Source: Myxococcota bacterium (GTDB lineage Bacteria; Myxococcota; B64-G9). Taken from it: a stretch of DNA of 53,546 bases. Positions within the stretch are counted from its first letter, which is position 1. Each line of letters opens with the position of its first letter. The stretch is taken from NCBI GenBank assembly GCA_022710975.1, contig JAKLGA010000009.1, positions 1-53,546 of the forward strand. The letters are read 5' to 3'. Below the pieces are notes generated by a model. That model saw only the letters and a list, made by a program, of their open reading frames with translations. It made no database searches and had not been told where the DNA came from. The position numbers and the translations under genes are program-made. Below are positions 21,659 through 39,494 of the stretch, piece by piece.

Positions 21659-21780
21659 GGGACCTCCTGCGCTCGGCCGGCGAGACTACCCAGCCCGCGG
21701 GCGAACTGCAAGCGCGTTGCCAAGCGGCGGGGGAGGGGTTAGGGTGCTCCCGGACCCCAACCCACCGGAGGTGTGCCCGC

Positions 21781-22983: not shown

Positions 22984-23004
22984 GCCGCGCCGGGTCCCCC
23001 GCGT

Positions 23005-23637: not shown

Positions 23638-24390
23638 TCACATCCCACCGGCGAAGCCACCGTCCGCGTCCAGCACCGCGCCGTGCACGTAGGCGGCCTC
23701 GTCCGAGGCCAGCCAGCACACCAGGGCCGCGATCTCGTCGGCGCTGGCGAAGCGCCGGAGCGGCACGCGCGCGCGCAGCTCCTCGCCCGCCAGCGCCCGC
23801 AGCGGCGCGGTCATGCCCGTCTCCACGATGCCCGGGGCCACCGCGTTCACCCGGATGCCCTTACGGCCCACCTCGACCGCCAGGGCGCGGGTGAAGGCCT
23901 CGGCGAAGCCCTTCGTGCCGGCGTACACCGCCCCGCCCCGGCTGGGCTTCCTGGCGAGCGTCGAGCTCAGGTTGACGATGCAGCCCGCGCGCGCCTTGAG
24001 CATGGGCTCGAGGGCCGCCCGGGCGAGCCACACCTGGCCCAGCACGTTGGTCTCCACCACCCGGCGGATCTCCTCGTCTGGCTGGGAGAGCAGCAGGTTC
24101 TCGGCCGCCACCCCGGCGTTGTTCACCAGCGTGTCCAGCCGCCCGTAGGCCTCGAGTGCCCGCGCCACCAGGAGCCCGGCCGTGGCCGGATCGGCCACGT
24201 CGCCGCGCACCACCTCGCAGGCGGCCCCGTCCGCGCGGCAGCCCTCGGCCACCTGCCGCATGGCCCCCTCGTCCGCGCGGTGGTTGAGCACCAGGCGCGC
24301 GCCCGCCCGGGCGAAGCGGCGCGCCACGGCCGCCCCGATGCCGCGCGAGGCCCCGCTCACCAGGATCACCCGTCCGCCCGTCATCACCAT
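23638..24390 (-). CDS. SDR-family oxidoreductase (FabG-like 3-oxoacyl-ACP reductase type)
   Basis: GASRGIG Rossmann motif, NNAG, catalytic YAGTK (YxxxK), PG motif; ~250 aa. Confidence 0.85.
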   Translation of the reverse strand: MVMTGGRVILVSGASRGIGAAVARRFARAGARLVLNHRADEGAMRQVAEGCRADGAACEVVRGDVADPATAGLLVARALEAYGRLDTLVNNAGVAAENLLLSQPDEEIRRVVETNVLGQVWLARAALEPMLKARAGCIVNLSSTLARKPSRGGAVYAGTKGFAEAFTRALAVEVGRKGIRVNAVAPGIVETGMTAPLRALAGEELRARVPLRRFASADEIAALVCWLASDEAAYVHGAVLDADGGFAGGM

Positions 24391-24515
24391 GCCCTGCCGC
24401 CTCCCGGGGAGTGTGTCCTCCTTGTACCCGCACCTGCAGGCGCCAGGCAAGCGCTGGCCCCGCGACCGGGGGCGTGGCATGCTGCCGCAGGGGGGTGAGC
24501 CATGGGAGGTGGTCC

Positions 24516-24887
24516 GTGCGGAGCACGTGGAGCGCCTGCGTGGGGCTGGTGATCCTCCTGCTGGCCGGCTGCGAGCGGCCGCCAGCCGAGCCGGCGCCGG
24601 CCGATGCCCAGGCCGTGGCCGCGCAGCGCGAACGCGAGGTGCGCCAGTGGTGGAAGGCTTGCCGGGCCGGCGGGCAGACGGACTGCGCCCGGCTCGAGGC
24701 GCTGCTCGCCAGCGACTCGGGTTTCAAGGCGCGCGTGGGCACCGACGCGGGGATCCTCGCCCAGGTGTGCCGGCTCGGGGATCCGGATCGCTGCCTGGAC
24801 CTCGGGCTCAAGCTCTTCTTCGGGGTGGGCGTGCCGCGGGATCCGGCCGCGGCCGACGCGGCCATGGCCAAGGCCCGGCTGGAGTGA
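24516..24887 (+). CDS. Possible small lipoprotein with Sel1-like repeat (GTG start)
   Basis: (V)RSTWSACVGLVILLLAGC lipobox-like leader; C-terminal LGLKLFFGVGVPRDPAAADAAMAKA resembles Sel1/TPR-like motif; on opposite strand inside the minus-strand lipid gene string, so weak. Confidence 0.3.
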   Translation: MRSTWSACVGLVILLLAGCERPPAEPAPADAQAVAAQREREVRQWWKACRAGGQTDCARLEALLASDSGFKARVGTDAGILAQVCRLGDPDRCLDLGLKLFFGVGVPRDPAAADAAMAKARLE

Positions 24888-24968
24888 GGCGGCTCACGCG
24901 GGCCGCGCGCCCCGCCCGCCAGGCGCCGGTCCAGGCGCACGCGGGGCCGGGCACGCACGGCAGCCGTC

Positions 24969-26267
24969 TCAGGCCGGGCTCCGGCTCACCACCAGGGCGG
25001 CGTTCTGGCCGCCGAAGCCGAACGAGTTGGACAGGCAGGTGCGCACCCGGGCCGAGCGCGGCGCGAGCGGCACGTGGCACAGGGCGCACTCGGGATCCGG
25101 ATCGGTCAGGTTCAGGGTGGCGGGCAGGAGCTGCGCCTCCAGGGCCCACAGCACGGCCACCAGCTCGACCGCGCCGGCCGCGCCGATCAGGTGGCCGAGC
25201 TGGCTCTTGGTCGAGGACACCGGCACCCGCGGGGCGGCCTGCCCCAGCACCTGGCGGATGGCGGCCGCCTCGGACGGATCGTTCTTGCGGGTGCCCGTGC
25301 CGTGGGCGTTGATGTAGTCGAGCTCGCCGGGCGCGATCCCGGCGCGCTCCAGCGCCAGCCGCATGGCGCGGGCGGCCTGGGCCTGGTCCGGGGCCGGGTC
25401 GGACACGCGGAAGGCGTCCAGCGTCGAGGCGTAGCCCCGCAGCTCGGCCAGGATGGGCGCCCCGCGGCGCCGGGCGGCCTCGCGCTCCTCCAGCACCAGC
25501 GCGGCCGCGCCCTCGCCCAGCACGAACCCGTCCCGGGCGCGGTCGAAGGGCCGCGAGGCGGCCGGGCCGAGCTCGTTCGAGCGCGACAGCGCCTCCAGCA
25601 TGCAGAAGCCGCCCACGCCCAGCGGGTTGACCATCGAGTCGTAGCCGCCGGTCAGCGCGCAGTCCAGGAGCCCGTCCTGCACGGCCAGGAAGGCCTCGCC
25701 GATGGCCTGGCTGCCGGCGGCGCAGGCCGACAGGTTGACCGCGAACAGGCCCTGGCCGCCCAGCTCCGCGGCCAGGCAGCGGGCGCCGAGATCGGCCGGG
25801 ATCTGCACCAGCGAGCGCTCGCGCTGGGCGCGCACGGCCTCGGCCAGGAGGGCGTAGTCGAGCCGCCCGGCGCGCACCTGCTCGGCCAGGTCCCCCAGGT
25901 TGAAGATCTCCAGGCCGGCGGCCAGGACCAGGCCCACCCGCCGCGGGGCGTGGTGCGCGCTCGCCCGGCTGCCGGGGAACGCCTGCGCCAGGGCCTCGCG
26001 TCCGGCCAGCAGCCCGAAGAGCGATTTGGGATCCCGGAGCAGCGCCGCGCGCTGGTCCGCCGGCAGGTCGAGCTCCGCGCGCGGCAGCGGCGGGACCTGG
26101 CCGGCGATGCGCGTCGGGAAGGTGGCCGCGTCGAAGCTGCGGATGGGCCCGATCCCGGAGCGCCCCTCGCGCAGGCCGGCGAAGAACTCCTGCCTGCCCA
26201 CGCCGATGGGCGAGACCACCCCGCAGCCGGTGACGACCACCCGGCGGCGCGCGCTCGACGAACTCAC
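24969..26267 (-). CDS. Beta-ketoacyl-ACP synthase (KAS II / FabF-like)
   Basis: GTG start with GGAGGTG RBS; RRVVVTGCGVVSPIG, active-site Cys in NLSACAAGSQAIG, His motifs INAHGTGT and GHLIGAAG; 432 aa. Confidence 0.9.
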   Translation of the reverse strand: MSSSSARRRVVVTGCGVVSPIGVGRQEFFAGLREGRSGIGPIRSFDAATFPTRIAGQVPPLPRAELDLPADQRAALLRDPKSLFGLLAGREALAQAFPGSRASAHHAPRRVGLVLAAGLEIFNLGDLAEQVRAGRLDYALLAEAVRAQRERSLVQIPADLGARCLAAELGGQGLFAVNLSACAAGSQAIGEAFLAVQDGLLDCALTGGYDSMVNPLGVGGFCMLEALSRSNELGPAASRPFDRARDGFVLGEGAAALVLEEREAARRRGAPILAELRGYASTLDAFRVSDPAPDQAQAARAMRLALERAGIAPGELDYINAHGTGTRKNDPSEAAAIRQVLGQAAPRVPVSSTKSQLGHLIGAAGAVELVAVLWALEAQLLPATLNLTDPDPECALCHVPLAPRSARVRTCLSNSFGFGGQNAALVVSRSPA

Positions 26268-27475
26268 GCGCCCACCTCCGGGGCGGCCAGCAGGGCCGCG
26301 GACAGGCCCCCGTCCGGGCCGACGGCCGTGACCAGCACCCGGTCGGGGGTAGGCGGCGAGGGGGGGCCGGCCTGCGGACCGTCGCCGGGCAGGGGCGCAC
26401 CCGCGGCCAGGCACAGGCTGGCCACGGCCAGGGCGGCGGGGAAGGCGGCCGGCTCGGAGAAGCCCAGCAGCCCGTCCAGGCTCAGGAGTGCGGGCGGCCG
26501 GGCGGGCCACAGCCGCGCGCACAGCGACACCAGGGCCGCGTCCCCGGCCGCGTCCGGGCTGCCCGTCACCAGCAGGACCGGGGGCGGCGGTCCCCCGCTC
26601 GCGTCCCGCAGGACCTCCGCGAGCAGGTCCGTCGCGCCCGCCGCCTGCCGGGGGCCCCAGGCGACGCTGACGCGCTCGAGCGCGGCCAGGGGGCGCGCCC
26701 CGCGCGCCCGGGCGGCCGGCTCCTGCTCGAGCACCAGCGCCGCGCCCTGATCGGCCGGGGCCAGGCCGCGGTGGCCGGGCGCGAAGGGCCGGGCGGCCTC
26801 GGCCGTGGTGGGCACCTGGTCCGCCCGCAGCGCGGTGCACAGGGGCAGCAGCGACAGCGCCTGGCCGCTGCCGCCGACCAGGGCGCAGCCGGCGCGGCCA
26901 CGGCGGAGGCCGCGCAGGGCGGCCTCCAGCGCGGCGCCGGCCTGGCCGGCGCCCGGGTACAGGATGGCGTTCTCGCCCCGCAGGCCGAGGGCGATGCTGG
27001 CGAGCCCGAGCGGCATGTTGAGCAGCATCTTGAAGGGCATGAGCGGGTTGCAGCGGCGGATGCCCTCGGCGCCCATGTAGGCGTAGTCCGGCCGTCCGTC
27101 CGCCGTCAGGCCCGCGGCCATGGTCGGGTAGACCGCGGCGAGGTCGAAGGCGATCAGCCCGGTGGCCAGGTAGAGCGAGGTGTCCTCGGGCGGGGAGGAG
27201 AGCGCCGCGGCGGCCAGCGCCCGCGCGCAGACCACCACGGCCAGCTCGGCGGTGGGGCTCATGTACTTCTGCAGCTTGCGATCCGCCAGGAACCCGGACG
27301 TGGGCGGGGGCGGGCAGGGGGCCCCGGGCAGCGCGGGGAAGCCCGGCGCCCCGGCCAGCTCGAAGGCGCGGAGCGCGCGCCGGCCCGCCTGCAGCGCCGC
27401 GAGGCTCTCGGGCCCGTCGCCGAAGGCGGTGTGCAACCCGGCGCCGGTGACGAGGGTGCGCCCAGGTGCGCTCAC
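26264..27475 (-). CDS. Beta-ketoacyl synthase-like protein lacking the Cys-His-His triad (chain-length-factor / KS-beta-like)
   Basis: KS-fold length and N-terminus (RTLVTGAGLHTAFG) but active-site positions read ATGLIA / GGSGQ instead of xACxxG / HGTGT; stop overlaps KAS start (4 nt) and start overlaps dehydratase stop. Confidence 0.7.
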   Translation of the reverse strand: MSAPGRTLVTGAGLHTAFGDGPESLAALQAGRRALRAFELAGAPGFPALPGAPCPPPPTSGFLADRKLQKYMSPTAELAVVVCARALAAAALSSPPEDTSLYLATGLIAFDLAAVYPTMAAGLTADGRPDYAYMGAEGIRRCNPLMPFKMLLNMPLGLASIALGLRGENAILYPGAGQAGAALEAALRGLRRGRAGCALVGGSGQALSLLPLCTALRADQVPTTAEAARPFAPGHRGLAPADQGAALVLEQEPAARARGARPLAALERVSVAWGPRQAAGATDLLAEVLRDASGGPPPPVLLVTGSPDAAGDAALVSLCARLWPARPPALLSLDGLLGFSEPAAFPAALAVASLCLAAGAPLPGDGPQAGPPSPPTPDRVLVTAVGPDGGLSAALLAAPEVGA

Positions 27476-27984
27476 TCGATGAACCTCGCCTCGCGGGTGA
27501 GGATCTCCAGGTAGCCCTCGCGGGCCTCCTGCAGGCGCTTGTCCTCGATCTTGAGGAACACGTACAGGATCTCGGCCTGGGCCACCCGGCGCTCGCCGCG
27601 CCTGGTGAGCACCTTGACCAGGGCCGAGTCCTCGTGGGCCGAGACGATCTCCGCCCGCAGGCGTAGCAGGTCGCCTGGCTTCACGAAGTCGCGGAACTTG
27701 GCCTTGACCGAGCTCAGCACGCAGCGCGGGCTGTAGCCGAGCTCGCCCTTCAGCGACAGCTCGAGCAGCGCCCCGCCGAGCTGGGCCATGCTCTCGATGA
27801 GCAGCGCGCCGGGGTAGACCGGTTGACCGGGGAAGTGGTGCTCGAAGCAGTCCTCGCTCAGCGCCACGGCCTTGAGGCCCTCGGCGTACTCCCCCCGCTT
27901 GACCTCCTCGATGCGATCGAGCAGCACGTAGCGCACGTCGTCACCCTCCCTCGCGCGGGCCGTCTTCCCCGTCGTCCCCGGCAT
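27472..27984 (-). CDS. FabZ/FabA-like 3-hydroxyacyl-ACP dehydratase (hotdog fold)
   Basis: EHHFPGQPVYPGALLIESMAQ motif (FabZ HxxxG..P..PG.L..E); ~165 aa; start may be ATG 27984 or GTG 27933 (track start overlaps nitroreductase 3' end by 44 nt). Confidence 0.8.
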   Translation of the reverse strand: MPGTTGKTARAREGDDVRYVLLDRIEEVKRGEYAEGLKAVALSEDCFEHHFPGQPVYPGALLIESMAQLGGALLELSLKGELGYSPRCVLSSVKAKFRDFVKPGDLLRLRAEIVSAHEDSALVKVLTRRGERRVAQAEILYVFLKIEDKRLQEAREGYLEILTREARFIE

Positions 27985-28621
27985 CCAGGACGCGCAGCAG
28001 CCGCTCGGCGGCCCGGCGCGGGGGCGCCGCGGGCGCCTCGGCCGGGTAGCCCACGGGCACCAGCGCGGCCACCTCCCAGCTGTCTTGAAGACCGAGCAGA
28101 CGGCCGAGCGCCGGCGCGGCCACCAGCGGGCCGGTCATCCAGCAGGCCCCCAGCCCGAGCGCGTGGGCGGCCAGGAGCAGGTTCTCGACGGCGGCCGCCA
28201 CCGAGGCCAGCGAGTCCTCGGCCTGGCGGCCGGCCGGGCTGCCCGCGGGCCGGGCCCGGCGCTGTTGGCTGGCGGCCAGGAGATCGGGCCCCGGGCGGTG
28301 GGCGAAGGCCAGCACCAGCGGGGCCTGGTCGAAGAAGCAGAAGGCGTCCAGGTAGCGGTTGGCGTCCTCCGCGGCCTCGGGCCGGAGCCCGGCCCGGAAG
28401 GGGGCCAGCGCCTCGTCCACCGCGGCCCGCAGGGCGGCCCGCCGCCCGGGCGCGCTCACCGCGAGGAGCCGCCAGGCCTGGCGGTTTCCGGCCGAGGGCG
28501 CCCAGCGCGCCGCCTCGGCCAGCTTCGAGACCAGCTCCGCCGGCACCGGCTCGGGCCGGAAGCGCCGGATCGAGCGCCGCCCGCGCAGGAGCTCGAGCAG
28601 CCGGGCGTAGCTCTCGGACAT
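27941..28621 (-). CDS. Nitroreductase-family flavoprotein
   Basis: RRSIRRFRPEPVPAELVSKLAEAARWAPSAGNRQAWRLL is the nitroreductase N-terminal signature; 226 aa; first gene of the minus-strand arm, GGGGAGG RBS. Confidence 0.8.
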   Translation of the reverse strand: MSESYARLLELLRGRRSIRRFRPEPVPAELVSKLAEAARWAPSAGNRQAWRLLAVSAPGRRAALRAAVDEALAPFRAGLRPEAAEDANRYLDAFCFFDQAPLVLAFAHRPGPDLLAASQQRRARPAGSPAGRQAEDSLASVAAAVENLLLAAHALGLGACWMTGPLVAAPALGRLLGLQDSWEVAALVPVGYPAEAPAAPPRRAAERLLRVLDAGDDGEDGPREGG

Positions 28622-28695
28622 GGCGCCTCCCCGCGGCGTGGTTGCCGACCGCCGCGGCGTGTGGGATCATCCCCGGCCTGCGAGGAGGAGTCAAC

Positions 28696-29445
28696 GTGGC
28701 CGAAGACGGAACGCTCCGGGGCATGCGGGTGCTGGTGACCGGCGGGACGGGCTCCATCGGCCGGGCCATGTGCCGGGCCTTCGCCCGGGAGGGGGCGGAT
28801 CTCGCCTTCACCTGGAACCGGCGCGAGGCGGAGGCCGGGGCGCTGGCGGCCGAGCTCCAGGGCCGGGGCGTGCGCGCGCTGCACGGCCGGGTGGGCGCCA
28901 CCGACGGGCCGGCCATCCAGGCCTTCTGCGAGCGGGTGGAGACGGAGCTCGGCGCGCTGGACGCGCTGGTGAACAACCTCGGCGGCACCCAGGTGCTGCC
29001 CTTCGCGCTGATCGACGAGCCCGACTGGGACGAGACCCTGGCGCTCAACCTCAAGTCGATGTTCCTGTTCTCCAAGGCGGTGGTGCGGGGCATGATCCGC
29101 CGCAAGGCGGGGGTGATCCTCAACCTGGGCTCCCTGGCCGGCCGGCGCATGCTGGAGGTGCCGGTGCACTACGCCACCGCCAAGGCCGGGGTGACCGGGT
29201 TCACCATCTCGCTGGCCAAGGAGCTGGCCCGCTACGGCATCCGCGTGCTGGAGCTGACGCCGGGGCTCATCCAGGGCGGCATCGGCGACAACGTCAGCGA
29301 GCGCCAGCTCGCCGAGTACAACCGCTACTGCGCCCTCGGCCGACCGGGCACGGCCGAGGAGGTGGCCGAGCTGGCCGCCTTCCTGATCTCCCCGCGCGCC
29401 GGCTACATGAACGCGGTCAGCGTCCAGCTCGACGGGGGGCTGTGA
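28696..29445 (+). CDS. SDR-family 3-oxoacyl-ACP reductase-like (FabG-like)
   Basis: GTG start after GGAGGAG RBS; TGGTGSIGRAM, NNLG, YATAKAG (YxxxK); 249 aa; first gene of plus-strand arm, divergent from nitroreductase. Confidence 0.85.
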   Translation: MAEDGTLRGMRVLVTGGTGSIGRAMCRAFAREGADLAFTWNRREAEAGALAAELQGRGVRALHGRVGATDGPAIQAFCERVETELGALDALVNNLGGTQVLPFALIDEPDWDETLALNLKSMFLFSKAVVRGMIRRKAGVILNLGSLAGRRMLEVPVHYATAKAGVTGFTISLAKELARYGIRVLELTPGLIQGGIGDNVSERQLAEYNRYCALGRPGTAEEVAELAAFLISPRAGYMNAVSVQLDGGL

Positions 29446-29448
29446 GGA

Positions 29449-30915
29449 ATGCCCGTGGCGCCCGGTGAGCTGCCCATCTACCTGGGCCTGTCCCAGGGCC
29501 TGTGCCGCGAGTGCCGGCGCGTGGTGCCGGCCCGCTACCTGGCCGACGCGCAGGGGGTGTGGCTGGAGCGGCTGTGCCCCGAGCACGGCCCGGCCCGGGC
29601 CCGGGTGGCCGAGAGCCTGGCCTGGTTCCAGGACGCGCTGCGGGCCCCCATGGCCCCGCGCCCGCCGGCGCAGGCCCGGCCGCGCAGCGCCGGCTGCCCG
29701 GAGAGCTGCGGGCCGTGCAGCTTCCACGCCCAGGCCTGCCACCTGCCGGTCTTCTCCATCACCAACGCCTGCGATCTGCGCTGCCCGATCTGCTTCACCT
29801 ACAACCGCGCCGACCGCCTGTACTTCATGCCGCCCGAGGAGTTCCAGCGCCAGATCGAGTTCGTGGTCCGGGCCACCGGCGGGACGCACCTGGTCAACGT
29901 GACCGGCGGCGAGCCGTTCATGCATCCGCGGCTCTTCGAGCTCCTGGCGCTCGCGCGGCGGCCCGAGATCGGACGCGTCACGGTGAACACCAACGGGCTG
30001 GCCATCGCCGCCGACCCGTCTCTGGCCCGGCGCCTGGCCGGGGTGGGCGCCTACGCCATCCTGTCGCTCGACACGCTCGACCGGGAGCGCAGCCTGCGGC
30101 TGCACGGGCGGGACATCGTGGACGAGAAGCGCCGCGCGCTCGACGCGCTCGAGGCGGCGGGCGTGCCCACGACGCTGCTGATGGTGCTGGCCGGCGGGAT
30201 CAACGAGGCCGACCTGGCCCCCGTCCTCGAGCTGGCCATGCGCCGCGAGCACGTGCGCTCCTTGACCATCCAGTGCATGACCTACACCGGCCAGGGCGGC
30301 GGCGCCTTCCTGCCGCGCCGGCACCTGCCGGTGGAGAGCGTCGAGCGCATGCTGGCCGAGGCCAGCGGCGGTTGGCTGCGCCCGGGCGACTTCATGCCGC
30401 TGCCCTCGGCCCACCCGCTGTGCTACGGGGTGAGCTACCTGGTGTGCGAGCCCCGGGCCGGGCTGCACCCCTTCGCCCGGCTGCTCAGCCGCGAGGTGCT
30501 GGCGCGTAGCCTGGTGGGAGGGTACCTGCTCGAGCCGACCGCGGAGCTCGAGACCTCGCTGCGGGACGCCATCGACCGGCTGTGGTCCGAGGGGGCCGAG
30601 CCCGGCCTCTTGCGGGCGCTGAAGAGCATGCTGACCACCATCTACCCGACCGGGCAGTCGCTGGGCGTGGCCGAGCGCCAGCGCCGGGCCGAGTCCACGG
30701 TCAAGACGCTGTACGTGCACGCGCACATGGACGAGGACACCTGGGAGGTGGGCCGGGCCATGCGCTGTCCGGACCAGGTGCCGGTGGACGCCGAGCGGCT
30801 GATCGGCGCCTGCAACTACAACCTGTTCTACCGCATGCGGGATGAGCGCTTCTGGGTGGAGCCCGGCTGCGCCGGCCGCGAGGCCGGGGGTTGCGGGCAG
30901 GAGCCAGCGCCATGA
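29449..30915 (+). CDS. Radical SAM enzyme with N-terminal rubredoxin-like Cys3His module and second Cys cluster, paralog 1
   Basis: N-term CRECRR...WLERLCPEHG (CxxC / CPxHG knuckles), then GCPESCGPCSFHAQAC, then rSAM core CDLRCPICF (CxxxCxxC) and GGEPF; C-terminal RAMRC...ACNYN; 488 aa. Confidence 0.85.
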   Translation: MPVAPGELPIYLGLSQGLCRECRRVVPARYLADAQGVWLERLCPEHGPARARVAESLAWFQDALRAPMAPRPPAQARPRSAGCPESCGPCSFHAQACHLPVFSITNACDLRCPICFTYNRADRLYFMPPEEFQRQIEFVVRATGGTHLVNVTGGEPFMHPRLFELLALARRPEIGRVTVNTNGLAIAADPSLARRLAGVGAYAILSLDTLDRERSLRLHGRDIVDEKRRALDALEAAGVPTTLLMVLAGGINEADLAPVLELAMRREHVRSLTIQCMTYTGQGGGAFLPRRHLPVESVERMLAEASGGWLRPGDFMPLPSAHPLCYGVSYLVCEPRAGLHPFARLLSREVLARSLVGGYLLEPTAELETSLRDAIDRLWSEGAEPGLLRALKSMLTTIYPTGQSLGVAERQRRAESTVKTLYVHAHMDEDTWEVGRAMRCPDQVPVDAERLIGACNYNLFYRMRDERFWVEPGCAGREAGGCGQEPAP

Positions 30916-32327
30916 GCGCCCGGCCGCTCCCCCCGCCGGTGGAGACCTTCGCCGCCACCCGGGCGCTGTGCAACCTGTGCGGCCGGTTGACCGACGCGCG
31001 CATCGCCTTCCAGGGCGAGGAGGTCTGGCTGGAGAAGCACTGCCTGGAGCACGGCCCGAGCCGCACGCTCGTCTCCACCGACCGGGCTGGCTACCTGCTG
31101 TCGCTCGGCTTCGTGAAGCCCGGCCAGGATCCGCGCGCGCGAGCCGTACGGGACTACCGGGGCTGCCCGGGCTCGTGCGGGCTGTGCCCGGCCCACCAGC
31201 AGCACACCTGCGTGCCCATCCTCGAGCTCACCGGGCGCTGCGACCTCGACTGCCCCGTGTGTCTGGTGCACGGCCAGGCCCAGCCCGAGCTCGGCCTGGA
31301 GGACGTGCGCCGGGTGGTGGCGGCGCTGCTCGGCTACGAGGGGCGGCTGCACATGCTGAACCTCTCGGGCGGCGAGCCCACCGCCCACCCCCGCTTCCTG
31401 GAGATCGTCGAGGAGCTCGCGGCCCGGCCGGAGATCGGCGTGCTCAGCGTGTCCACCAACGGCCTGCGGCTGGGCGAGGACGAGCGCCTGGCCCGGCGGC
31501 TGGCGGAGCTCAAGGTGGTGGTCTCGCTGCAGGTGGACGGGCTGGCCGGGGAGGGCGACCTCGCGCTGCGCGGGCGGCCGGGGCTGGCCGCGCTGAAGCG
31601 CCGGGCGCTGGAGCGGGTGCTCGCGGCCGGAGGGCGGCTGTCCCTGGTCTACACCCTGGAGCGCGGAGTGAACGAGGCCGGGCTCGCCGAGGTGCTCGCG
31701 CTGCTCTTCTCGAACGACGCCATCCTGAGCCTGATGGTCCAGCCCCTGGCCCACGCCCGGCGCGCCCCGGCGGGCGATCTGCGCGAGGTGCGCGCTGGCC
31801 TGACCACCCCCGAGGTGGTGGGGCTGCTGGTGGCCGCCTCCGGCGGGGTGCTCGAGCCGCGGGACCTCACCCCGCTGCCCTGCTCGCACCCGGCCTGTTT
31901 CTCCCTCACCTACCTGCTGCGCGCCCGGGGCGGCAAGCTGGTGTCGCTGCCCAGGCTGGTGGACGCGGACACCTACCTGGACGCCATCAAGAACCAGGCC
32001 CTGCTGCGCACCGACCCCGAGGGGCTGCAGGCCGTCAAGGACGCGCTCTACAAGCTGTGGTCGTCGAGCGGGGTGATACCGGACCGGGAGGACGTGCTGG
32101 CGACGGTCAAGCAGCTCCTGCTCGATCTCCAGCGGGTGGATCCGCGCGGCCCGCTGCGGGACGGCCTGGAGCTCGGGCTGACGAACGTGAAGTCGATCTT
32201 CATCCACAGCTTCATGGACCGCTACACCTTCGACCTGTCGCGGGCCATGAAGTGCTGCAACCACTACCCGCAGGCTGATGGCCGGATGCTGCCGGCCTGC
32301 ATGCGCAACGTCGGGCTGGCCCGCTGA
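30912..32327 (+). CDS. Radical SAM enzyme with N-terminal rubredoxin-like Cys3His module, paralog 2
   Basis: CNLCGR...WLEKHCLEHG, GCPGSCGLCPAHQQHTC, rSAM CDLDCPVC, GGEPT, C-terminal RAMKCC...ACMRN; AGGAG RBS 8 nt before ATG 30912, which overlaps paralog-1 stop (ATGA). Confidence 0.85.
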   Translation: MSARPLPPPVETFAATRALCNLCGRLTDARIAFQGEEVWLEKHCLEHGPSRTLVSTDRAGYLLSLGFVKPGQDPRARAVRDYRGCPGSCGLCPAHQQHTCVPILELTGRCDLDCPVCLVHGQAQPELGLEDVRRVVAALLGYEGRLHMLNLSGGEPTAHPRFLEIVEELAARPEIGVLSVSTNGLRLGEDERLARRLAELKVVVSLQVDGLAGEGDLALRGRPGLAALKRRALERVLAAGGRLSLVYTLERGVNEAGLAEVLALLFSNDAILSLMVQPLAHARRAPAGDLREVRAGLTTPEVVGLLVAASGGVLEPRDLTPLPCSHPACFSLTYLLRARGGKLVSLPRLVDADTYLDAIKNQALLRTDPEGLQAVKDALYKLWSSSGVIPDREDVLATVKQLLLDLQRVDPRGPLRDGLELGLTNVKSIFIHSFMDRYTFDLSRAMKCCNHYPQADGRMLPACMRNVGLAR

Positions 32328-32361
32328 ACAATCTCGCCCAGGCGGCGGGGGGAGGCGCTCC

Positions 32362-33414
32362 ATGGACGTCGATCTGTTCGGGCTGGAGATGAGCTGGGCG
32401 GACTTCGCCCAGGCGCTGGGGCTGGGCTTCCTGGCCTGGTTCTTCGTGCGCCACGTGCTGCTCGGGTTCATCGTGGTCGACCAGAACGAGCGCGCGGTGA
32501 AGACGAGCTTCGGGCGGGCCCTGCGCCTGGGGCAGACCACCACGCTGGCGCTGCCCATCGCCGAGGTCCTGAGCCCGGACCAGCGCAAGCGCTACTCGTT
32601 TCCCCAGGTGCGGGTCATGGGCCCGGGCTGGTACTTCAAGTGGCCCTGGCAGCGGGTGCACAAGGTGAGCATCGCCACCCGCACGGTGAACATGGCCTGG
32701 GATCCGGAGACCCCGTCCGCCAACCACAACGGCACCATGCTGGAGGCGGTCACCAAGGACCAGCTCAACACCGGGCTCACGGGCGACATCCGCTGGCGGG
32801 TGAGCGAGCAGAACCTGTACGCCTACCTGTTCGGGGTCAAGCGGCCCATCGCCCACGTCATGGGCTACTTCGTGTCCGTGCTGCGCGAGCGCATCGCCAA
32901 CTTCGAGGCCCCCAAGACCGCGGCCGCCCCGGCCGCCCAGGCGGGTCCGGGCGCGCTGCCTGGCTTGCCCATGGACGCCTCCATGGTGCAGGGGGTGAGC
33001 ATCAACGATCTGCGCAAGAACCTGCGCGACATCAACGACCACATGGACCGCGAGTGCCGCTCGTCCGAGGCGCGCTACGGCATCCTGCTGGACGCCTCGC
33101 TGATCACCGGCATCGATCCGCCGCCCGAGGTGGAGTCGGCCCTGGCGGCCATCAACACCGCCCACAACCAGGTGTCCTCCGACATCAGCCTGGCCCAGGC
33201 CGGGGCCGACCAGAAGATCGTCCAGTCCCGCCGGGCGGTGGAGATCGAGACCATGCGGGCCCAGGCCGAGGTGTCGCCGCTGACCGCCCAGGCCGAGCAG
33301 CTCGCGGCGCTGAAGGCGGCCGGGGGCAAGGAGGCGCTGGCCGCGTACCGGCGCTTCGTGCGCCTGGAGCTCTTCAAGCAAGCCGGCCAGGTGGTGCAGG
33401 AGGTGCGGTCATGA
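32362..33414 (+). CDS. SPFH/band-7 (stomatin/flotillin/HflK-like) membrane protein 1
   Basis: N-terminal TM LGLGFLAWFFVRHVLLGFIVV followed by VDQNERAVKTSFGR (SPFH start motif), long C-terminal coiled-coil-like Ala/Gln-rich region; GGGGGGAGG RBS. Confidence 0.8.
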   Translation: MDVDLFGLEMSWADFAQALGLGFLAWFFVRHVLLGFIVVDQNERAVKTSFGRALRLGQTTTLALPIAEVLSPDQRKRYSFPQVRVMGPGWYFKWPWQRVHKVSIATRTVNMAWDPETPSANHNGTMLEAVTKDQLNTGLTGDIRWRVSEQNLYAYLFGVKRPIAHVMGYFVSVLRERIANFEAPKTAAAPAAQAGPGALPGLPMDASMVQGVSINDLRKNLRDINDHMDRECRSSEARYGILLDASLITGIDPPPEVESALAAINTAHNQVSSDISLAQAGADQKIVQSRRAVEIETMRAQAEVSPLTAQAEQLAALKAAGGKEALAAYRRFVRLELFKQAGQVVQEVRS

Positions 33415-34376
33415 GCGAGAACGGCTGGCTGCTCACCGGGATCGCCTTCGGCGGCTTCTTCCTGGCCGTGCCCATCTTCCTGGGGTTCCTGCGCTTCCTC
33501 GGCTTCTACGCCGTGGTCCAGGAGCGCACCTGCCAGGTGTACGTGCTGTTCGGCAAGGTGGTCACGGTGATCGAGGAGCCCGGGCTCCACTTCCTGTGGC
33601 TCAAGATGGGCCTGAAGGCCCCGGTGGTGCGCTGGATCGGCAAGCTGTACGTGGTGGACATGCGGCTCGACCAGACCTACATGCGCTCCCAGCCGGTCAA
33701 CTCCGAGGAGGGCGCCCCCATGGGCATCGGCATCTGGTACGAGATGTACATCTCGGACCCGCTGGCCTTCCTGTTCAAGAACACCGACCCGCGCGGGTCG
33801 CTCCGGGCCAACGTGTCCAACGCCACGGTGCGCTGCCTGTCGAACATGAAGCTCGGCGAGATGCTCCAGACCCGGCACCTCATGTCCGAGACGGTGCGCA
33901 ACGAGGTCTCGCCCAAGAGCCACGAGTGGGGCTACCGGCTGGGCTCGGTGTACATCCGCAAGGTGCACTTCCGCGACGCGGGCATGATCGCGCAGATCGA
34001 GGAGAAGGTGGTGAACCGCCTGCGCCAGGTCACCTCGGCCATCCGGCAGGAGGGCCAGAACCAGGTCAGCCTCATCTCCAGCGCGGCCGAGCGCGAGGCG
34101 GCCGTGGACTTCGCCAAGGCCGCGGCGCTCCGGCCGGAGATCGTGGGCGCGGCGCTCCGGCGCATCGGCCAGGATGCGGAGGTGAGCGAGGCGCTGTTCG
34201 AGGTGCTGGAGAACCAGGCGCTGGTGGCGAGCGGCGCCCGGCTCACCCTGGTGCCACCCGGCCAGGCGGTGTTGCCGGCGCTCCTGGCGGCCCGCGCCGC
34301 GCCGGCGTCCGGCCCGGCGCCCGCGGGCCGTCCCGTCCCGGCCCCGGGTAGGTTCCCCGTGCCCACCCAGCCGTGA
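33411..34376 (+). CDS. SPFH/band-7 membrane protein 2
   Basis: TM LLTGIAFGGFFLAVPIFLGFL, SPFH motif VVQERTCQVYVLFGKVVTVIEEPGLHF; start overlaps paralog-1 stop (ATGA). Confidence 0.8.
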   Translation: MSENGWLLTGIAFGGFFLAVPIFLGFLRFLGFYAVVQERTCQVYVLFGKVVTVIEEPGLHFLWLKMGLKAPVVRWIGKLYVVDMRLDQTYMRSQPVNSEEGAPMGIGIWYEMYISDPLAFLFKNTDPRGSLRANVSNATVRCLSNMKLGEMLQTRHLMSETVRNEVSPKSHEWGYRLGSVYIRKVHFRDAGMIAQIEEKVVNRLRQVTSAIRQEGQNQVSLISSAAEREAAVDFAKAAALRPEIVGAALRRIGQDAEVSEALFEVLENQALVASGARLTLVPPGQAVLPALLAARAAPASGPAPAGRPVPAPGRFPVPTQP

Positions 34377-34473
34377 CCCGCCGATCGAGCTGCGGCCCGG
34401 GCTCCACTCAGGGTTGACTACGGAGTCGAACGGGTTCAGATTTTCTTAAGAAGTGAGGAGATAGGCTTCGGGG

Positions 34474-34932
34474 TTGGCGAGGGCGCACTTGGATTCTGTC
34501 TGCCATATCGAGGGCTTCGAGCCCAGGCTCCTGGGCATCCTGTGCCACTGGTGCTCCTATACCGGCGCGGACCAGGCCGGCGCGGCGAAGCTGCCCTGCC
34601 CGCCGAACCTGCGCATCGCGCGGGTGATGTGCAGCGGGCGGGTCGAGCCCGAGCTCATCCTGCGCGCCTTCCTGCAGGGGGCGGACGGGGTGCTGGTGTG
34701 CGGGTGCCACCCGGGCGACTGCCACTACCTGGGAGGCAACTGCAAGGCCGCCCTGCGCGTCGGCCTGCTGCGACGGGTGCTCGCGCAGCTCGGCATCGCG
34801 CCGGGCCGGCTGCGGCTCGAGTGGGTCAGCGCCAGCGAGGGGGAGCGTTTCTCGCGCGTCGCCCAGGAGGCGGTGGACGCGATGCGCGCGCTCGGCCCGC
34901 TGGGGCTCGGCGGCGGGCAGGTGGCGCCATGA
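34474..34932 (+). CDS. MvhD-like iron-sulfur protein (methyl-viologen-reducing hydrogenase delta subunit family)
   Basis: ILCHWCSYTGADQAG...RVMCSGRVEPELILRAFLQGADGVLVCGCHPGDCHYLGGN is the MvhD/FlpD signature; TTG start, GAGGAG upstream. Confidence 0.75.
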   Translation: MARAHLDSVCHIEGFEPRLLGILCHWCSYTGADQAGAAKLPCPPNLRIARVMCSGRVEPELILRAFLQGADGVLVCGCHPGDCHYLGGNCKAALRVGLLRRVLAQLGIAPGRLRLEWVSASEGERFSRVAQEAVDAMRALGPLGLGGGQVAP

Positions 34933-36884
34933 GCCGGCCGGACGCCGCCCCGGTGCGGGTCTACCTGTGCGAGTGCGGGCCCATCCTCCGGGAGGCCCTG
35001 GATCTCGCCGCCCTGGGCCACGCCCTGGCCGGCGCGCCCGGGGTCGAGGCCGTCGAGCGGCAGGCCACCCTGTGCTCGCCCGAGGGCCAGGCCTGGCTCG
35101 GGCGCGAACTCGCGGCCCACCCGGGCTGCCGCCCGGTGGTGGTGGCCTGCTCGCCCCGCGAGCACGGCCGGACGTTCATGGACGTCTGCCGCAGGGCCGG
35201 GACCAACCCCTACCTGCTGGCCATCGCCAACGTCCGCGAGCAGTGCGCCTGGGTCACGCGGGAGCCGGCCCGGGCGCTGGAGAAGGCGATCGCGCTCGGC
35301 CGGGCGGCCATCGCCAGGGCCAGGCTGCAGCAGGAGCTCGAGGAGCAGGAGATCGATTGCTGCCCGGACGCCCTGGTCCTCGGCGCGGGCGTGGCCGGGC
35401 TCACCGCGGCGCTGCTGCTGGCCCGGGCCGATCGGCGGGTCGTCCTGGTGGAGCGCGCCCCGGCCATCGGCGGCCGGACCGTGCTGCTGTCCGAGCTGTT
35501 CCCGCACCTCGAGTGCGCCTCCTGCGCCCTGGTGCCCCTGATGGACGAGGTGCTGCACCACCCGAACATCGAGGTGCTGACCTCGAGCCAGGTCGAGCGT
35601 GTGCTGGGCTCGTTCGGCAACTTCCAGGTCGGCATCCGCCGGCGGGCCCGGTTCGTCGATCCGGCCGCCTGCTATGGCTGCGGGACCTGCCACGCGGCCT
35701 GCCCGGTCGAGGGGCCCAACGAGCACCAGCAGGGCCTGGGGCGGCGCAAGGCGATCTACCTGCCCTACGCCGGAGCGCTGCCCAACGTCTCCACGCTGGA
35801 CGCCGAGCGCTGCCTGCGCCGGACCGGCCAGGCCTGCGACGCCTGCCAGAAGGCCTGCCCCTTCGGCGCCATCGACCTGCAGGCCCAGGAGGCGGTGCTC
35901 GAGCGGCGGGTGGGCGGGATCGTGGTGGCCACGGGCGCCGACACCCCCCTGCGGGGCGCGGCCGCGCGGATGCCCCGGGTGATCACCGCCGCCGCCCTGG
36001 AGCGCATGCTCGACCCGGCCGGGCCCACCGGCGGGGAGCTCCGCCCGGCCGGGTTGCCGCCGCCGCGCTCGGTGGCGCTGGTGCACTGCGCCACCGCGGA
36101 TGGCCGGGCGCCCGCACCGACCTGCTCCAAGGTGTGCTGCCAGGCCCTGGCCAAGTACGCCCACGCGCTGCGCGCGCGGCTGCCGGACGCCAAGCTCACG
36201 CGCCTGGTCTGGGACGAGTGCGCGGGCGGCAAGGGGGCGCGCGAGTTCGTGCGCGACGCCTTCAGGGCGCCGGGCGTCGAGAGCGTGCGCCTGCTGCCGG
36301 GCGAGCGGCTCGAGGGGCTCGAGGAGCGTGGGGACTCGGTCTGGCTGAAGCTGCGGCGCGGCCGGCGGCTGGAGGTGGTGCAGGCCGAGCTGGTGGTGCT
36401 GGCCACGGCCATGGAGGGGGCGAGCCAGGTCGAGGCGCTGGCCGGGCGGATGCGCCTCGGGCTGGATCCGGCCGGCTTCGTGGTCGAGGAGAACGACCGG
36501 CTGGCCTCCTACCGCACGCGGGTGGAGGGGATCTTCGTGGCCGGCTGCGCCCAGGGGCCCAAGGACGTGCAGGAGTCGAGCGCCCAGGCGGCCGGGGCGA
36601 GCGGGGCCCTGCTGTCCGCGCTGGTGCCGGGGCGGAAGCTCAAGCTGGAGCCCGCGGTGGCCCGCGTGGACCCGGCCCTGTGCGGCGGGTGCCGCGCCTG
36701 CGTGGGCGCCTGCCCCTTCCAGGCGGTGCGCTACGACCAGGAGCGGCGCGCGGCCCAGGTGACGGAGGTGCTGTGCCGGGGCTGCGGGACCTGCGCCGCG
36801 GGCTGCCCGGCCGGGGCCATCCAGGCCCTGCACTTCACGGCGGAGCAACTGGGCGGAGAGATCTCCGCGTTACTGGAGGGATGA
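34929..36884 (+). CDS. HdrA-like FAD-dependent iron-sulfur flavoprotein (heterodisulfide reductase subunit A family)
   Basis: FAD motif LVLGAGVAGLTAALLLA, ferredoxin-type motifs CYGCGTCHAACP and CGGCRACVGACP, further CxxC clusters; 651 aa; start overlaps MvhD stop. Confidence 0.8.
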   Translation: MSRPDAAPVRVYLCECGPILREALDLAALGHALAGAPGVEAVERQATLCSPEGQAWLGRELAAHPGCRPVVVACSPREHGRTFMDVCRRAGTNPYLLAIANVREQCAWVTREPARALEKAIALGRAAIARARLQQELEEQEIDCCPDALVLGAGVAGLTAALLLARADRRVVLVERAPAIGGRTVLLSELFPHLECASCALVPLMDEVLHHPNIEVLTSSQVERVLGSFGNFQVGIRRRARFVDPAACYGCGTCHAACPVEGPNEHQQGLGRRKAIYLPYAGALPNVSTLDAERCLRRTGQACDACQKACPFGAIDLQAQEAVLERRVGGIVVATGADTPLRGAAARMPRVITAAALERMLDPAGPTGGELRPAGLPPPRSVALVHCATADGRAPAPTCSKVCCQALAKYAHALRARLPDAKLTRLVWDECAGGKGAREFVRDAFRAPGVESVRLLPGERLEGLEERGDSVWLKLRRGRRLEVVQAELVVLATAMEGASQVEALAGRMRLGLDPAGFVVEENDRLASYRTRVEGIFVAGCAQGPKDVQESSAQAAGASGALLSALVPGRKLKLEPAVARVDPALCGGCRACVGACPFQAVRYDQERRAAQVTEVLCRGCGTCAAGCPAGAIQALHFTAEQLGGEISALLEG

Positions 36885-36912
36885 CGGGGCCCCCACGGAA
36901 AGGAGCTGACCG

Positions 36913-37134
36913 ATGGCCGAGATCAAGATGGACACCAAGGGAATGCGTTGCCCGCAGCCCGTGCTCAAGGTCGCCGCGCGCGCGCCGGAGCTGAAGGCCG
37001 GCGACCTGCTGGAGGTGATCGGCGACTGCCACACCTTCGAGGACGACATCCGCAAGTGGTGCCAGCGCATGGGCAAGACCCTGCTGGCGGTGAACCGGGA
37101 CGGCGCGGTGGTGACCGTGCGCATCCAGTTCTGA
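36913..37134 (+). CDS. TusA-family sulfurtransferase-like protein
   Basis: 73 aa with CPxP motif DTKGMRCPQPVLK at the canonical position. Confidence 0.8.
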   Translation: MAEIKMDTKGMRCPQPVLKVAARAPELKAGDLLEVIGDCHTFEDDIRKWCQRMGKTLLAVNRDGAVVTVRIQF

Positions 37135-37153
37135 GGCGGGGAGGACCCAGGCG

Positions 37154-38002
37154 ATGAGCAAGGACAAGCAGGCAGGCGACCTCCAGACCGCGCACCGGAC
37201 CTGCGCGGCGCTGGCGAAGGCGCTGGACGGTCTGGCCCAGGGGACCCTGGACGTCCCGGTGCCGTCGGCGGCCGGCGTCGAGGGGCTGGACCCGGTGTGC
37301 CTGGCGGCCAAGCGGCTGCAGGCGGAGCTGCGGCGCGCGGCCGGGGAGCTCGAGCAGGAGCGGAGCCAGAACCACCAGTCGAGCATGGAGATGGCCCTCG
37401 GGCTGTCCGAGAGCTTCGAGGTGCTGACCAAGGTCTGCCAGGGCAACCTCGACGCGCGGGTGGGCAAGCAGGTGGAGGAGTCACCCGAGGAGCTGATCGC
37501 CCAGCTGGCCAAGCTGCTGAACGCCACCATCGAGAACATCAGCCGCCAGCAGAACGTGATCCACGAGCTGTCGACTCCGGTGCTGCAGCTCTGGGACGAC
37601 ATCCTGGTGCTGCCGGTGATCGGCCTGGTGGACTCGCGCCGCAGCCTGGACATCATGGAGCGGCTGCTGCACCAGATCGTCGAGAAGCAGGCGCGCTACG
37701 TGATCATGGACATCACCGGCGTGGACCTGGTGGACACCAAGACCGCCGACCACTTCATCAAGGTGATCAAGGCGGCCGAGCTGCTGGGGACCACCTGCGT
37801 CCTGTCAGGCATCCAGCCCGCGGTGGCGCAGACCCTGGTCGAGATCGGGGTCGACCTGACCTCGATCCTGACGCTGCGCGATCTGTCGGAGGGGCTCAAG
37901 GAGTGCCTGCGGCTGAAGGAGGTCCAGGCCATTTCGGAGATGAAGATCCAGACGCAAGCGAGCGTGCGCGATGCCGGGTCTCGGCAACCTGCAGGTCGTT
38001 AG
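37154..38002 (+). CDS. RsbR-like stressosome sensor (N-terminal sensing domain + C-terminal STAS)
   Basis: C-terminal half ...VLPVIGLVDSRRSLDIMERLLHQIVEKQARYVIMDITGVDLVDTKTADHFIKVIKAAELLGTTCVLSGIQPAVAQTLVEIG is a STAS domain in RsbR arrangement. Confidence 0.7.
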   Translation: MSKDKQAGDLQTAHRTCAALAKALDGLAQGTLDVPVPSAAGVEGLDPVCLAAKRLQAELRRAAGELEQERSQNHQSSMEMALGLSESFEVLTKVCQGNLDARVGKQVEESPEELIAQLAKLLNATIENISRQQNVIHELSTPVLQLWDDILVLPVIGLVDSRRSLDIMERLLHQIVEKQARYVIMDITGVDLVDTKTADHFIKVIKAAELLGTTCVLSGIQPAVAQTLVEIGVDLTSILTLRDLSEGLKECLRLKEVQAISEMKIQTQASVRDAGSRQPAGR

Positions 38003-38396: not shown

Positions 38397-38426
38397 GGCT
38401 GAGGCGGGGGCGGAGGGCGGATCGCA

Positions 38427-39489: not shown

Positions 39490-39494
39490 ACCCG

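Follow-up and report, generated by a model that had tools for sequence, protein, structure and literature searches.

A conserved gene cluster joining two Tes-like radical-SAM paralogues to fatty-acid/polyketide-type enzymes, in a probably mosaic region of a Myxococcota genome

Introduction

The archaeal tetraether synthases (Tes, or GDGT-MAS) are radical S-adenosylmethionine (SAM) enzymes that act alone on finished archaeal diether lipids. Tes abstracts hydrogen at a terminal sp3 carbon, and a C–S adduct is then formed on a sulfide of the auxiliary cluster (PMC9433317; PMC13459092 section 2.1); a second radical completes the C–C bond, and a sulfur-bearing lipid has been recovered under limiting SAM (PMC9433317; PMC13459092). 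Met439, a labile cluster ligand, and Tyr459 are completely conserved in 1000 archaeal Tes homologues (PMC9433317). Bacterial ‘Tes homologues’ have been counted in metagenomes as indicators of brGDGTs (branched glycerol dialkyl glycerol tetraethers) or membrane-spanning lipids (PMC8941075, PMC11868695). The producers of the bacterial membrane-spanning-lipid synthase Mss (T. maritima and T. ethanolicus) have been reported to be without Tes homologues, which suggests that Mss and Tes are distinct proteins. Here we describe a gene cluster in which two Tes-like paralogues accompany fatty-acid/polyketide-type genes, in a stretch of 53,546 nucleotides from a Myxococcota metagenome-assembled genome (MAG), referred to below as the window.

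The region of interest, 23638–37134, contains ketosynthase (KS), chain-length-factor-like (CLF-like), dehydratase (DH) and ketoreductase (KR) genes, together with two radical-SAM paralogues (rSAM-1 and rSAM-2), two flotillin-like SPFH proteins, an MvhD/HdrA pair and TusA. A preliminary description had treated all of these as one candidate lipid-modification system, and every gene and family that it listed is present where it placed them, as judged from third-position GC (GC3) coding frames, a public gene call and Pfam (Table 1). Our analysis favours, with a probability of about 0.6, another arrangement, namely a mosaic of three units carrying an orphan cluster, in which the Tes-like pair acts on the product of its own assembly line. 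Unit 1 comprises 23638–32327 and a displaced acyl carrier protein (ACP) gene at 21251–21658, unit 2 is the SPFH pair and unit 3 is the block running from MvhD to the HATPase genes.

Results

Recurrence of the core cluster

Related loci were collected by a scan of one genome per species with two peptide patterns, and the window proteins, followed by those of the neighbours, were mapped onto them, neighbour genes being picked under GC3 guidance. The scan, whose sampling is biased towards rSAM-2-like sequences, yielded 64 loci (denoted below by L numbers), 28 of which carry both rSAM paralogues; many of the 28 are truncated contigs. The recurrent layout is nitroreductase (NTR)–DH–CLF–KS–(SDR)–ACP, where SDR is a short-chain dehydrogenase/reductase, divergent from or collinear with SDR–rSAM1–rSAM2. 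An SDR was present in 26 of the pair loci, DH in 22, ACP in 21 and KS in 18, and NTR was found in 11 by tblastn at the thresholds used. The loci come from at least eight phyla, labelled in the records as Myxococcota/‘Deltaproteobacteria’, Acidobacteriota, Elusimicrobia, Planctomycetota, Verrucomicrobiota, Firmicutes, Victivallis/Victivallaceae and Rokubacteria, plus unclassified MAGs, and include MAGs assigned to Victivallis vadensis (L034, L035). The association of fatty-acid/polyketide-like genes with two radical-SAM paralogues, as first proposed for the window, is thus conserved across phyla. Searches of the accessible literature for the gene combination returned no description of the cluster, only brGDGT survey papers that do not contain it. 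We conclude that the core cluster is real and conserved, and that it represents an undescribed type whose enzymes come from known superfamilies.

In most relatives further genes follow rSAM-2: a 348-aa radical-SAM protein (rSAM-3, 13/28), a SPASM-type one (rSAM-4, 15/28), an alpha/beta-hydrolase (13/28) and a rhodanese-bearing gene (20/28). The last takes two forms, a 431-aa rhodanese protein in 13 loci and a NifS-like cysteine desulfurase–rhodanese fusion in seven. The 431-aa form is polytopic and membrane-embedded. In L068 the active-site loop of its rhodanese part has the sequence CQGGVRS, whose Cys recurs in the aligned homologues; the fusion scores 436 bits against the NifS model. The preliminary description had also raised sulfur chemistry; the rhodanese and cysteine-desulfurase genes of the orthologous clusters speak for that idea, and the window's own TusA lends it no support (see below). 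Variable extras in the loci include hexapeptide acyltransferases, ICMT/PEMT-type and class-I methyltransferases, a B12-type radical-SAM enzyme (B12-rSAM) and a GH3-type ligase. Homologues of rSAM-3, rSAM-4, either rhodanese form, the cysteine desulfurase and the alpha/beta-hydrolase were all absent from the 53.5-kb window. rSAM-3/4 are likewise absent from L013, L014, L017, L027 and L029 despite ample flanks, and the window gene set thus equals the common minimal core, which is found in L013, L014, L027 and L029 among others.

Several variants of these accessory genes, and of the cluster itself, were seen. The membrane rhodanese (L068 12458–13753; also L006, L012, L016, L002 and L005) carries conserved GE..CA, C-x5-C-x2-C-x7-C and WEE.TE motifs in its membrane domain, which has no Pfam match. 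The NifS–rhodanese fusion (L017 12376–13851, L034 11637–13514; also L020, L022, L023, L035 and L036) replaces it in clusters of the Firmicutes and Victivallis types. In four Myxococcales MAGs (L026, L030, L031 and L037) rSAM-1 is missing, the only enzyme of the pair is rSAM-2-like, and the KS genes number two or three; rSAM-3 and a rhodanese lie near this single-rSAM variant in L026, L030 and L037, and rSAM-4 also in L026.

The SPFH pair and the MvhD–HdrA–TusA module

The SPFH, MvhD, HdrA and TusA genes had been counted as members of the same system, and it is this part of the proposed synteny that fails: the fatty-acid synthase (FAS)/rSAM core recurs at 28 loci, and none of the 64 related loci has any of the four within 10 kb of its rSAM genes. 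A sister genome (L073) shares 83–88% nucleotide identity with the window over the backbone blocks flanking the cluster. Its gene order is u283, a beta-helix protein, OmpA, SPFH1 and SPFH2, with an FGE-sulfatase and an Ank-repeat protein further on. OmpA therefore directly precedes the SPFH pair there, the distance from OmpA to SPFH-1 being 52 bp with no FAS/rSAM genes between, compared with 9.4 kb in the window. L073 aligns to window positions 18224–21202, 21781–22983, 32351–34368 and 40187–41633, and the intervening parts are missing; the ACP gene is absent, and a different 2.9-kb segment stands in place of the window's 5.8-kb MvhD-to-HATPase block. Homologues of the SPFH pair are approximately 70% identical across phyla, with more than 8000 matches, and their neighbours are unrelated in L075 and L076. 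The pair is resident chromosomal backbone, a widespread two-gene unit that lies outside the cluster.

A metagenome scan with HdrA gave four loci, a small sample that is mutually consistent: MvhD–HdrA(–TusA) recurs in these four unrelated contigs (L069, L070, L071 and L072). Two of them, L069 and L072, have the same eight gene families as the window, including STAS, PP2C and HATPase, with a slightly different PP2C/HATPase order, and their MvhD, HdrA and TusA counterparts are 53–70% identical to those of the window. No rSAM, KS or SPFH genes lie near the block in any of the four contigs. The HdrA-like protein scores 530 bits against NCBIfam HdrA2 (cutoff 1100), and, compared with the HdrABC-MvhAGD electron-bifurcating complex, the window has the MvhD-like and HdrA-like proteins only, with TusA and STAS/PP2C/HATPase genes as neighbours. 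MvhD–HdrA–TusA and the STAS/PP2C/HATPase genes thus form a separate redox- or sulfur-linked partner-switching module, which probably has its own promoter in the AT-rich gap 34377–34473. The module joins an HdrA-like protein without HdrBC to the sulfur carrier TusA and a partner-switching set (two STAS proteins, a PP2C/SpoIIE phosphatase and two HATPase_c proteins, which are anti-sigma-kinase-like).

Taken together, the comparison with L073 and the independent occurrence of the HdrA block show that the region first reported is a mosaic, and the adjacency of its three units is lineage-specific.

The two radical-SAM paralogues

A comparison of the two paralogues with archaeal tetraether synthase, as suggested in the preliminary description, gave a positive result. 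For both, the best Protein Data Bank (PDB) match is 7TOL (GDGT-MAS), the sole full-length relative, with E-values of 3.6e-32 (rSAM-1) and 2.6e-41 (rSAM-2), although the two are only 22–26% identical to GDGT-MAS and 32–33% identical to each other. The top-scoring curated family for both is TrsS (NF045646), with 184 bits for rSAM-1 and 218 bits for rSAM-2 against a cutoff of 490, and the match spans the whole length, including the C-terminal domain; the Tes model (NF045702) gives 155 and 179 bits, respectively, against a cutoff of 450. An archaeal control (L060) passes the Tes model with 681 bits. Other bacterial relatives score 210–359 bits against TrsS and none of those tested reaches 490. The AlphaFold model of rSAM-2 (predicted local distance difference test score, pLDDT, 81; predicted template-modelling score, pTM, 0.85) superposes on 7TOM/7TOL with Foldseek TM scores of 0.79/0.75 over its full length (491 columns), a likeness between a predicted and an experimental fold, and its other Foldseek matches cover the radical-SAM core only, with TM scores of about 0.37. 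The four-domain fold is thus assigned to rSAM-2 from a predicted structure and to rSAM-1 from sequence only.

Metal ligands were compared in an alignment of 17 rSAM-1 and 19 rSAM-2 orthologues with the 7TOL sequence, rebuilt from the printed PDB-search alignments. Both families keep the rubredoxin-like CX2C...CX2H site, the N-terminal [4Fe-4S] ligands (Tes Cys73/77/80 plus a His), the CX3CX2C motif and the three Cys of the C-terminal cluster; the fourth rubredoxin ligand is variable (His, Cys or Asp, and Gly in one sequence). The position of Tes Met439 is an invariant His in both families. The position of Tyr459 is Val in rSAM-1 and Tyr (CCxxY) in rSAM-2, and Thr in one divergent extra paralogue. 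Both enzymes belong to the Tes/GDGT-MAS (Tes/TrsS) superfamily, and, because both curated cutoffs are missed and one Tes residue signature is absent, we do not assign them to Tes itself. Their clades are sisters in a distance tree and have matching internal topology, which points to one duplication and co-inheritance since.

Other radical-SAM families were also considered. NirJ/AhbC, MoaA, PqqE and the SPASM maturases match through the radical-SAM core only, at no more than 71 bits, and were rejected, and neither CofG/CofH nor lipoyl-synthase-type families appear among the best 25 of the 33 and 26 NCBIfam matches of the two proteins. Pfam finds no B12-binding domain in the window rSAMs. A third Tes-like paralogue lies near the pair in L029 (approximately 12800–14200) and in a contig of JGI sample 3300072015 (14623–16077), in one case beside an S-adenosylhomocysteine hydrolase gene. 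Stand-alone rSAM-2-like genes, approximately 30% identical and without KS or ACP neighbours, occur at L041–L064, mostly in Alphaproteobacteria with some Gammaproteobacteria and ‘Flavobacteriaceae’ MAGs; they score about 300 bits against TrsS and 260 against Tes, above the window paralogues and under both cutoffs, and form a separate, uncurated clade.

The chain-building enzymes and their carrier protein

The KS keeps the Cys-His-His triad, whereas in the CLF-like protein the active-site Cys and both His are replaced, in agreement with the first reading of the pair as an active KS beside a dead partner; the two genes co-occur in relatives. The remaining enzymes resemble those of fatty-acid synthesis and fall short of the curated models. 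The KS scores 392 bits against NCBIfam fabF (cutoff 494, not reached), and the DH, which carries an HFPGQPVYPG...ESMAQ motif, scores 92 bits against fabZ, under its cutoff, and is ApeI-like in precomputed Pfam matches. The ketoreductase SDR_G, a gene that always stands immediately 5′ of rSAM-1 (an SDR was detected in 26 of the 28 pair loci), reaches 181 bits against the 3-oxoacyl-ACP reductase model, again under the cutoff. The best NCBIfam match of NTR is BluB-like, under cutoff, and this protein could serve as an enoyl or other reductase. SDR_B has a YAGTK catalytic motif and may be a second KR or possibly an enoyl reductase; it is common in related clusters, where it lies between KS and ACP.

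The preliminary description had noted that no ACP gene lay in the cluster, which is true within its boundaries; an ACP gene lies approximately 2 kb to the left of them. The protein has the phosphopantetheine-attachment motif DLGAESLD and is 55% identical to the in-cluster ACP of an Acidobacteriota locus (L068). It matches NCBIfam ACP models, all under their cutoffs. A family alignment shows proteins of 125–153 aa with the motif DLGA(D/E)S(L/I)D and, at the C terminus, a further stretch of about 60 residues that is also conserved, and the family is small, with 194 homologues in 5.8 billion proteins. Contexts sampled from these homologues recover the same cluster and the same divergent layout. 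This ACP is the cognate carrier of the cluster, displaced in this genome, and is separated from SDR_B by an OmpA gene and a 196-aa gene. In L077 (10390–11175) an ACPS-family 4′-phosphopantetheinyl transferase directly follows the extended ACP, which suggests that some genomes require a separate enzyme to activate the carrier; no such transferase was seen in the window.

As a separate observation, the ACP gene and the remainder of the cluster stand on opposite sides of the backbone OmpA gene (window 21251–23595, compared with L073 8523–9990). Because both sides are missing in L073, either two deletions, or an insertion followed by rearrangement, must have occurred. A closer relative, with an ACP 95% identical to that of the window, has the window's OmpA–ACP–beta-helix order.

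Gene models and layout

The window has a G+C content of approximately 73%, and raw lists of open reading frames (ORFs) are full of spurious frames; genes were therefore called from GC3 and frame continuity. The resulting models agree with the independent public gene call on a 319-kb contig of a Myxococcota MAG (JGI Ga0209507_1000032), of which the window is positions 1–53546, and Pfam bears out every gene family named previously.

Table 1. Features of the region and the displaced carrier gene, with window coordinates.
Feature	Position	Strand	Remarks
Extended ACP	21251–21658	-	135 aa; Pfam PP-binding
SDR_B, FabG/FabL-like short-chain reductase	23638–24390	-	Pfam adh_short_C2, adh_short, KR
Lipoprotein-like small ORF	24516–24887	+	Between KS and SDR_B
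KS, FabF-like beta-ketoacyl-ACP synthase	24969–26267	-	Pfam ketoacyl-synt N and C domains
CLF-like dead KS paralogue	26264–27475	-	Weak Pfam match, N-terminal KS domain alone
DH, FabZ/ApeI-like 3-hydroxyacyl-ACP dehydratase	27472–27936	-	Pfam FabA
NTR, nitroreductase-family flavoprotein	27941–28621	-	Pfam Nitroreductase, 131 bits; first gene of minus arm
SDR_G, FabG-like ketoreductase	28696–29445	+	Pfam adh_short, KR; first gene of plus arm
rSAM-1	29449–30915	+	Pfam Zn_ribbon_HMPTM and Radical_SAM
rSAM-2	30912–32327	+	Pfam Zn_ribbon_HMPTM and Radical_SAM; Tes fold (predicted structure)
SPFH-1	32362–33414	+	Pfam Band_7
SPFH-2	33411–34376	+	Pfam Band_7
MvhD (FlpD)	34474/34489–34932	+	Pfam
HdrA-like flavo-Fe-S protein	34929–36884	+	Pfam, NCBIfam
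TusA	36913–37134	+	Pfam
MvhD-HdrA-TusA-STAS-STAS-PP2C-HATPase-HATPase block	34474–40166	+	Pfam, NCBIfam

Overlaps of 4 nt join DH/CLF, CLF/KS, rSAM1/rSAM2, SPFH1/SPFH2 and MvhD/HdrA. The minus-arm coupling proposed earlier thus stands for DH/CLF and CLF/KS but not for NTR and DH, which are separated by a 4-nt gap. The divergent intergenic region between the arms is 74 bp long and holds one promoter-like site, the sole informative result of a promoter/terminator scan of this GC-rich sequence. The gap between rSAM-2 and SPFH-1 is 35 nt, and that between SPFH-2 and MvhD is about 100 nt. The rSAM-2/SPFH junction is present in independent assemblies from three sources (JGI, Logan and ENA) and is therefore not a misassembly. 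The plus-strand lipoprotein-like ORF between KS and SDR_B places SDR_B outside the tight KS operon.

Two further features of the window are recorded here. The small ORF at 24516–24887 has a lipobox (LLLAGC), a Sel1-like tail and no Pfam match, and was not found in related clusters. A 569-aa ORF at 16315–18024 on the plus strand, at best a putative gene, has an extreme first-position GC of 0.94 and no Pfam match, and a very long antisense ORF overlaps it. The window genes at 4.7–21 kb encode unrelated secreted or regulatory proteins.

Discussion

Proposed chemistry and alternatives

In the orphan cluster, the KS/CLF/DH/KR(/NTR) genes, a private set of the type-II FAS/PKS-like kind, would use the extended ACP to build a dedicated chain, either acyl or a polyketide reduced in part, and rSAM-1 and rSAM-2 would each abstract hydrogen from an unactivated carbon of this chain. 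As in Tes, a sulfide of the C-terminal auxiliary [4Fe-4S] cluster would capture the substrate radical; the thiolated carbon would then be released with its C–S bond, one position per paralogue, by analogy with LipS1/LipS2 and LipA, and the sulfur would be replenished through the rhodanese or cysteine-desulfurase relay. To our knowledge, no Tes-fold enzyme has so far been seen to insert sulfur. We put forward tentatively, and by analogy, that the pair has been repurposed to sulfur insertion, with each member thiolating one unactivated carbon of an ACP-bound chain; this is possible rather than probable. The product of such thiolation might, again as a possibility short of even odds, be a new thiol or dithiol fatty acid, lipid or lipoate-like cofactor of anaerobes from at least eight phyla. 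We lean towards thiolation because persulfide-generating genes are the most consistent accessory of the cluster, because both paralogues have a changed ligand at the auxiliary cluster's unique iron, because two obligate paralogues would fit two positions, and because chemistry of the cofactor or metabolite type typically goes with an ACP of its own.

C–C coupling or cyclisation by the rSAM pair is the main and a serious alternative to thiolation. In its fullest form, the two enzymes would be true equivalents of Tes, coupling tails to give diabolic-acid-like or brGDGT-type membrane-spanning lipids, with the FAS-like genes supplying a special, for example branched, chain. The full Tes fold, the presence of all the metal-ligand positions and the conserved Tyr of rSAM-2 agree with this, as do the earlier proposals of bacterial Tes homologues as brGDGT enzymes (PMC8941075; PMC11868695), the membrane-embedded rhodanese of relatives and the ICMT/PEMT-type membrane methyltransferases of some loci. 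However, the Tes scores of both paralogues are far under the cutoff that the archaeal control passes, both families have His in place of Met439 and rSAM-1 has Val in place of Tyr459, and the pair usually has a private ACP, KS and DH, whereas Tes works on finished membrane lipids and its chemistry needs no obligately paired paralogues. The cluster is also rare and patchy (28 loci among species representatives, and the few ACP homologues noted above), which is more in keeping with an accessory metabolite than with a bulk membrane lipid; an acyltransferase of glycerolipid assembly was not seen in the loci, and the conserved rhodanese or cysteine desulfurase would be left unexplained. We consider equivalence with Tes unlikely on this balance. 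Still less can be said for a homologue of the anammox candidate cluster, of the ladderane type that antiSMASH calls in bacteria outside the anammox group. Both follow one logic (rSAM enzymes together with a private ACP, a variant FabZ and a FabF pair resembling KS/CLF), and ‘ladderane’ biosynthetic gene cluster (BGC) calls of unexplained function exist in Myxococcota, Verrucomicrobiota, Planctomycetota and other groups (PMC9902471). Yet the rSAM of anammox Cluster I is B12-dependent and accompanied by a phytoene-dehydrogenase-like gene, whereas the rSAMs here are Tes-fold, the window has no phytoene-dehydrogenase-like gene and a B12-rSAM occurs in only three related loci; moreover, nitroreductase and rhodanese are not described for anammox clusters, and ladderanes are known solely from anammox bacteria (PMC9902471). 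Such an origin is scarcely credible, and the anammox and Desulfotalea ‘ladderane’ clusters were rejected as the identity of the cluster on rSAM class and gene content.

Two other explanations concern the region as a whole. All genes of 23638–37134 could form one lipid-modification system, in which the SPFH proteins provide a membrane microdomain, HdrA/MvhD low-potential electrons for the rSAMs and TusA the sulfur: the genes are contiguous on the same strand with short gaps (35 nt between rSAM-2 and SPFH-1) and ATGA overlaps within pairs, their order is the same in independent assemblies, rSAM enzymes require a reductant, and genes of sulfur transfer are indeed present in orthologous clusters. 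This is nevertheless very improbable in view of the absence of SPFH, MvhD, HdrA and TusA from all 64 related loci, the 52-bp spacing of OmpA and SPFH-1 in a sister genome that has no FAS/rSAM genes there, the retention of MvhD–HdrA–TusA without rSAMs in four other contigs, the AT-rich gap 5′ of MvhD, and the ubiquity of an SPFH pair with unrelated neighbours. Alternatively, the cluster of this genome could be an incomplete or decaying remnant that has lost its back end, had its ACP displaced and foreign genes inserted, and no longer makes the family product. The window indeed has no rSAM-3, rhodanese, hydrolase or rSAM-4, the OmpA and 196-aa genes separate the ACP from SDR_B, the lipoprotein ORF separates KS from SDR_B, and the sister genome lacks the cluster altogether. 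We think decay improbable, however, as all nine genes are intact, with a strong GC3 coding signal and intact catalytic residues and metal ligands, five loci with ample flanks are also without rSAM-3/4, and the missing genes could sit in another part of the 319-kb contig or of the genome.

Several points weigh against the mosaic with an assembly line of its own that we prefer. For all members of the cluster we infer chemistry from gene content, and C–C coupling is the only chemistry demonstrated for the Tes fold, of which rSAM-2 keeps the Tyr that is invariant in the archaeal enzymes. The window is without the rhodanese, cysteine desulfurase, hydrolase and two smaller rSAMs usual in relatives; these may be encoded at other sites of the genome or of the 319-kb contig, unless this lineage has a shortened pathway. 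The rhodanese and cysteine desulfurase could serve only the building or repair of Fe-S clusters rather than supply substrate sulfur. The bias of the locus scan towards rSAM-2-like sequences also counts here. Finally, the SPFH pair, 35 nt past rSAM-2, is probably co-transcribed with it in this genome, and a local functional recruitment of the pair is therefore conceivable.

Significance

The cluster bears on the use of Tes homologues as lipid markers. Some members would pass commonly used BLAST thresholds; one from Firmicutes shares 31.5% identity with GDGT-MAS, at a pairwise E-value of 2e-77. A sizeable Tes-like clade that is tied to private ACP, KS and CLF genes, lacks Met439 and often has sulfur-relay genes beside it could thus inflate inferences of brGDGT production. 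The conserved cluster may also provide a concrete definition for at least some of the ‘ladderane-like’ BGC calls that are unexplained in bacteria other than anammox. For the enzymology of the fold, it offers a natural test of whether the C–S(cluster) intermediate of Tes can become the product-forming step. In addition, tight same-strand packing, with gaps of 35 nt and about 100 nt, joined three unrelated modules in the region, which calls for caution in cluster calling.

Comparison with known systems

Like Tes/GDGT-MAS (MJ0619, MA_1486; 7TOL/7TOM), the rSAMs described here have a four-domain fold, predicted for rSAM-2 from its model, four metal sites and an HMPTM zinc ribbon. They differ from Tes in forming a paralogue pair within an ACP/KS/CLF/DH/KR cluster, often with sulfur-relay genes. 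In working only, they also recall LipA, LipS1/LipS2, BioB and MiaB/RimO, where an auxiliary [4Fe-4S] cluster stands beside the substrate radical. The labour of LipS1/LipS2 is divided between two distinct proteins, as the rSAM pair brings to mind. No sequence relation to these families exists beyond the radical-SAM core, and none of them is among the best 25 NCBIfam matches.

With the candidate ladderane Cluster I of anammox bacteria (amxACP, amxFabZ, amxFabF2/amxFabFmut) the cluster shares a private ACP, a FabZ variant, a KS with a dead KS, and radical-SAM tailoring, a likeness in the kinds of genes. The anammox cluster has no nitroreductase, second SDR, or rhodanese or cysteine desulfurase, and the present cluster, in contrast to it, occurs in at least eight non-anammox phyla. 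The Kuenenia and Desulfotalea clusters (Rattray et al.) are different again. The aryl-polyene and other highly reducing, type-II PKS-like KS-CLF systems (such as ishigamide Iga11/12) resemble the cluster in their KS with a dead partner, ApeI-like dehydratase, FabG-like reductases and discrete ACP; unlike the present cluster, they are without Tes-like rSAMs, nitroreductase and an extended ACP, and aryl starter or adenylation genes are absent here.

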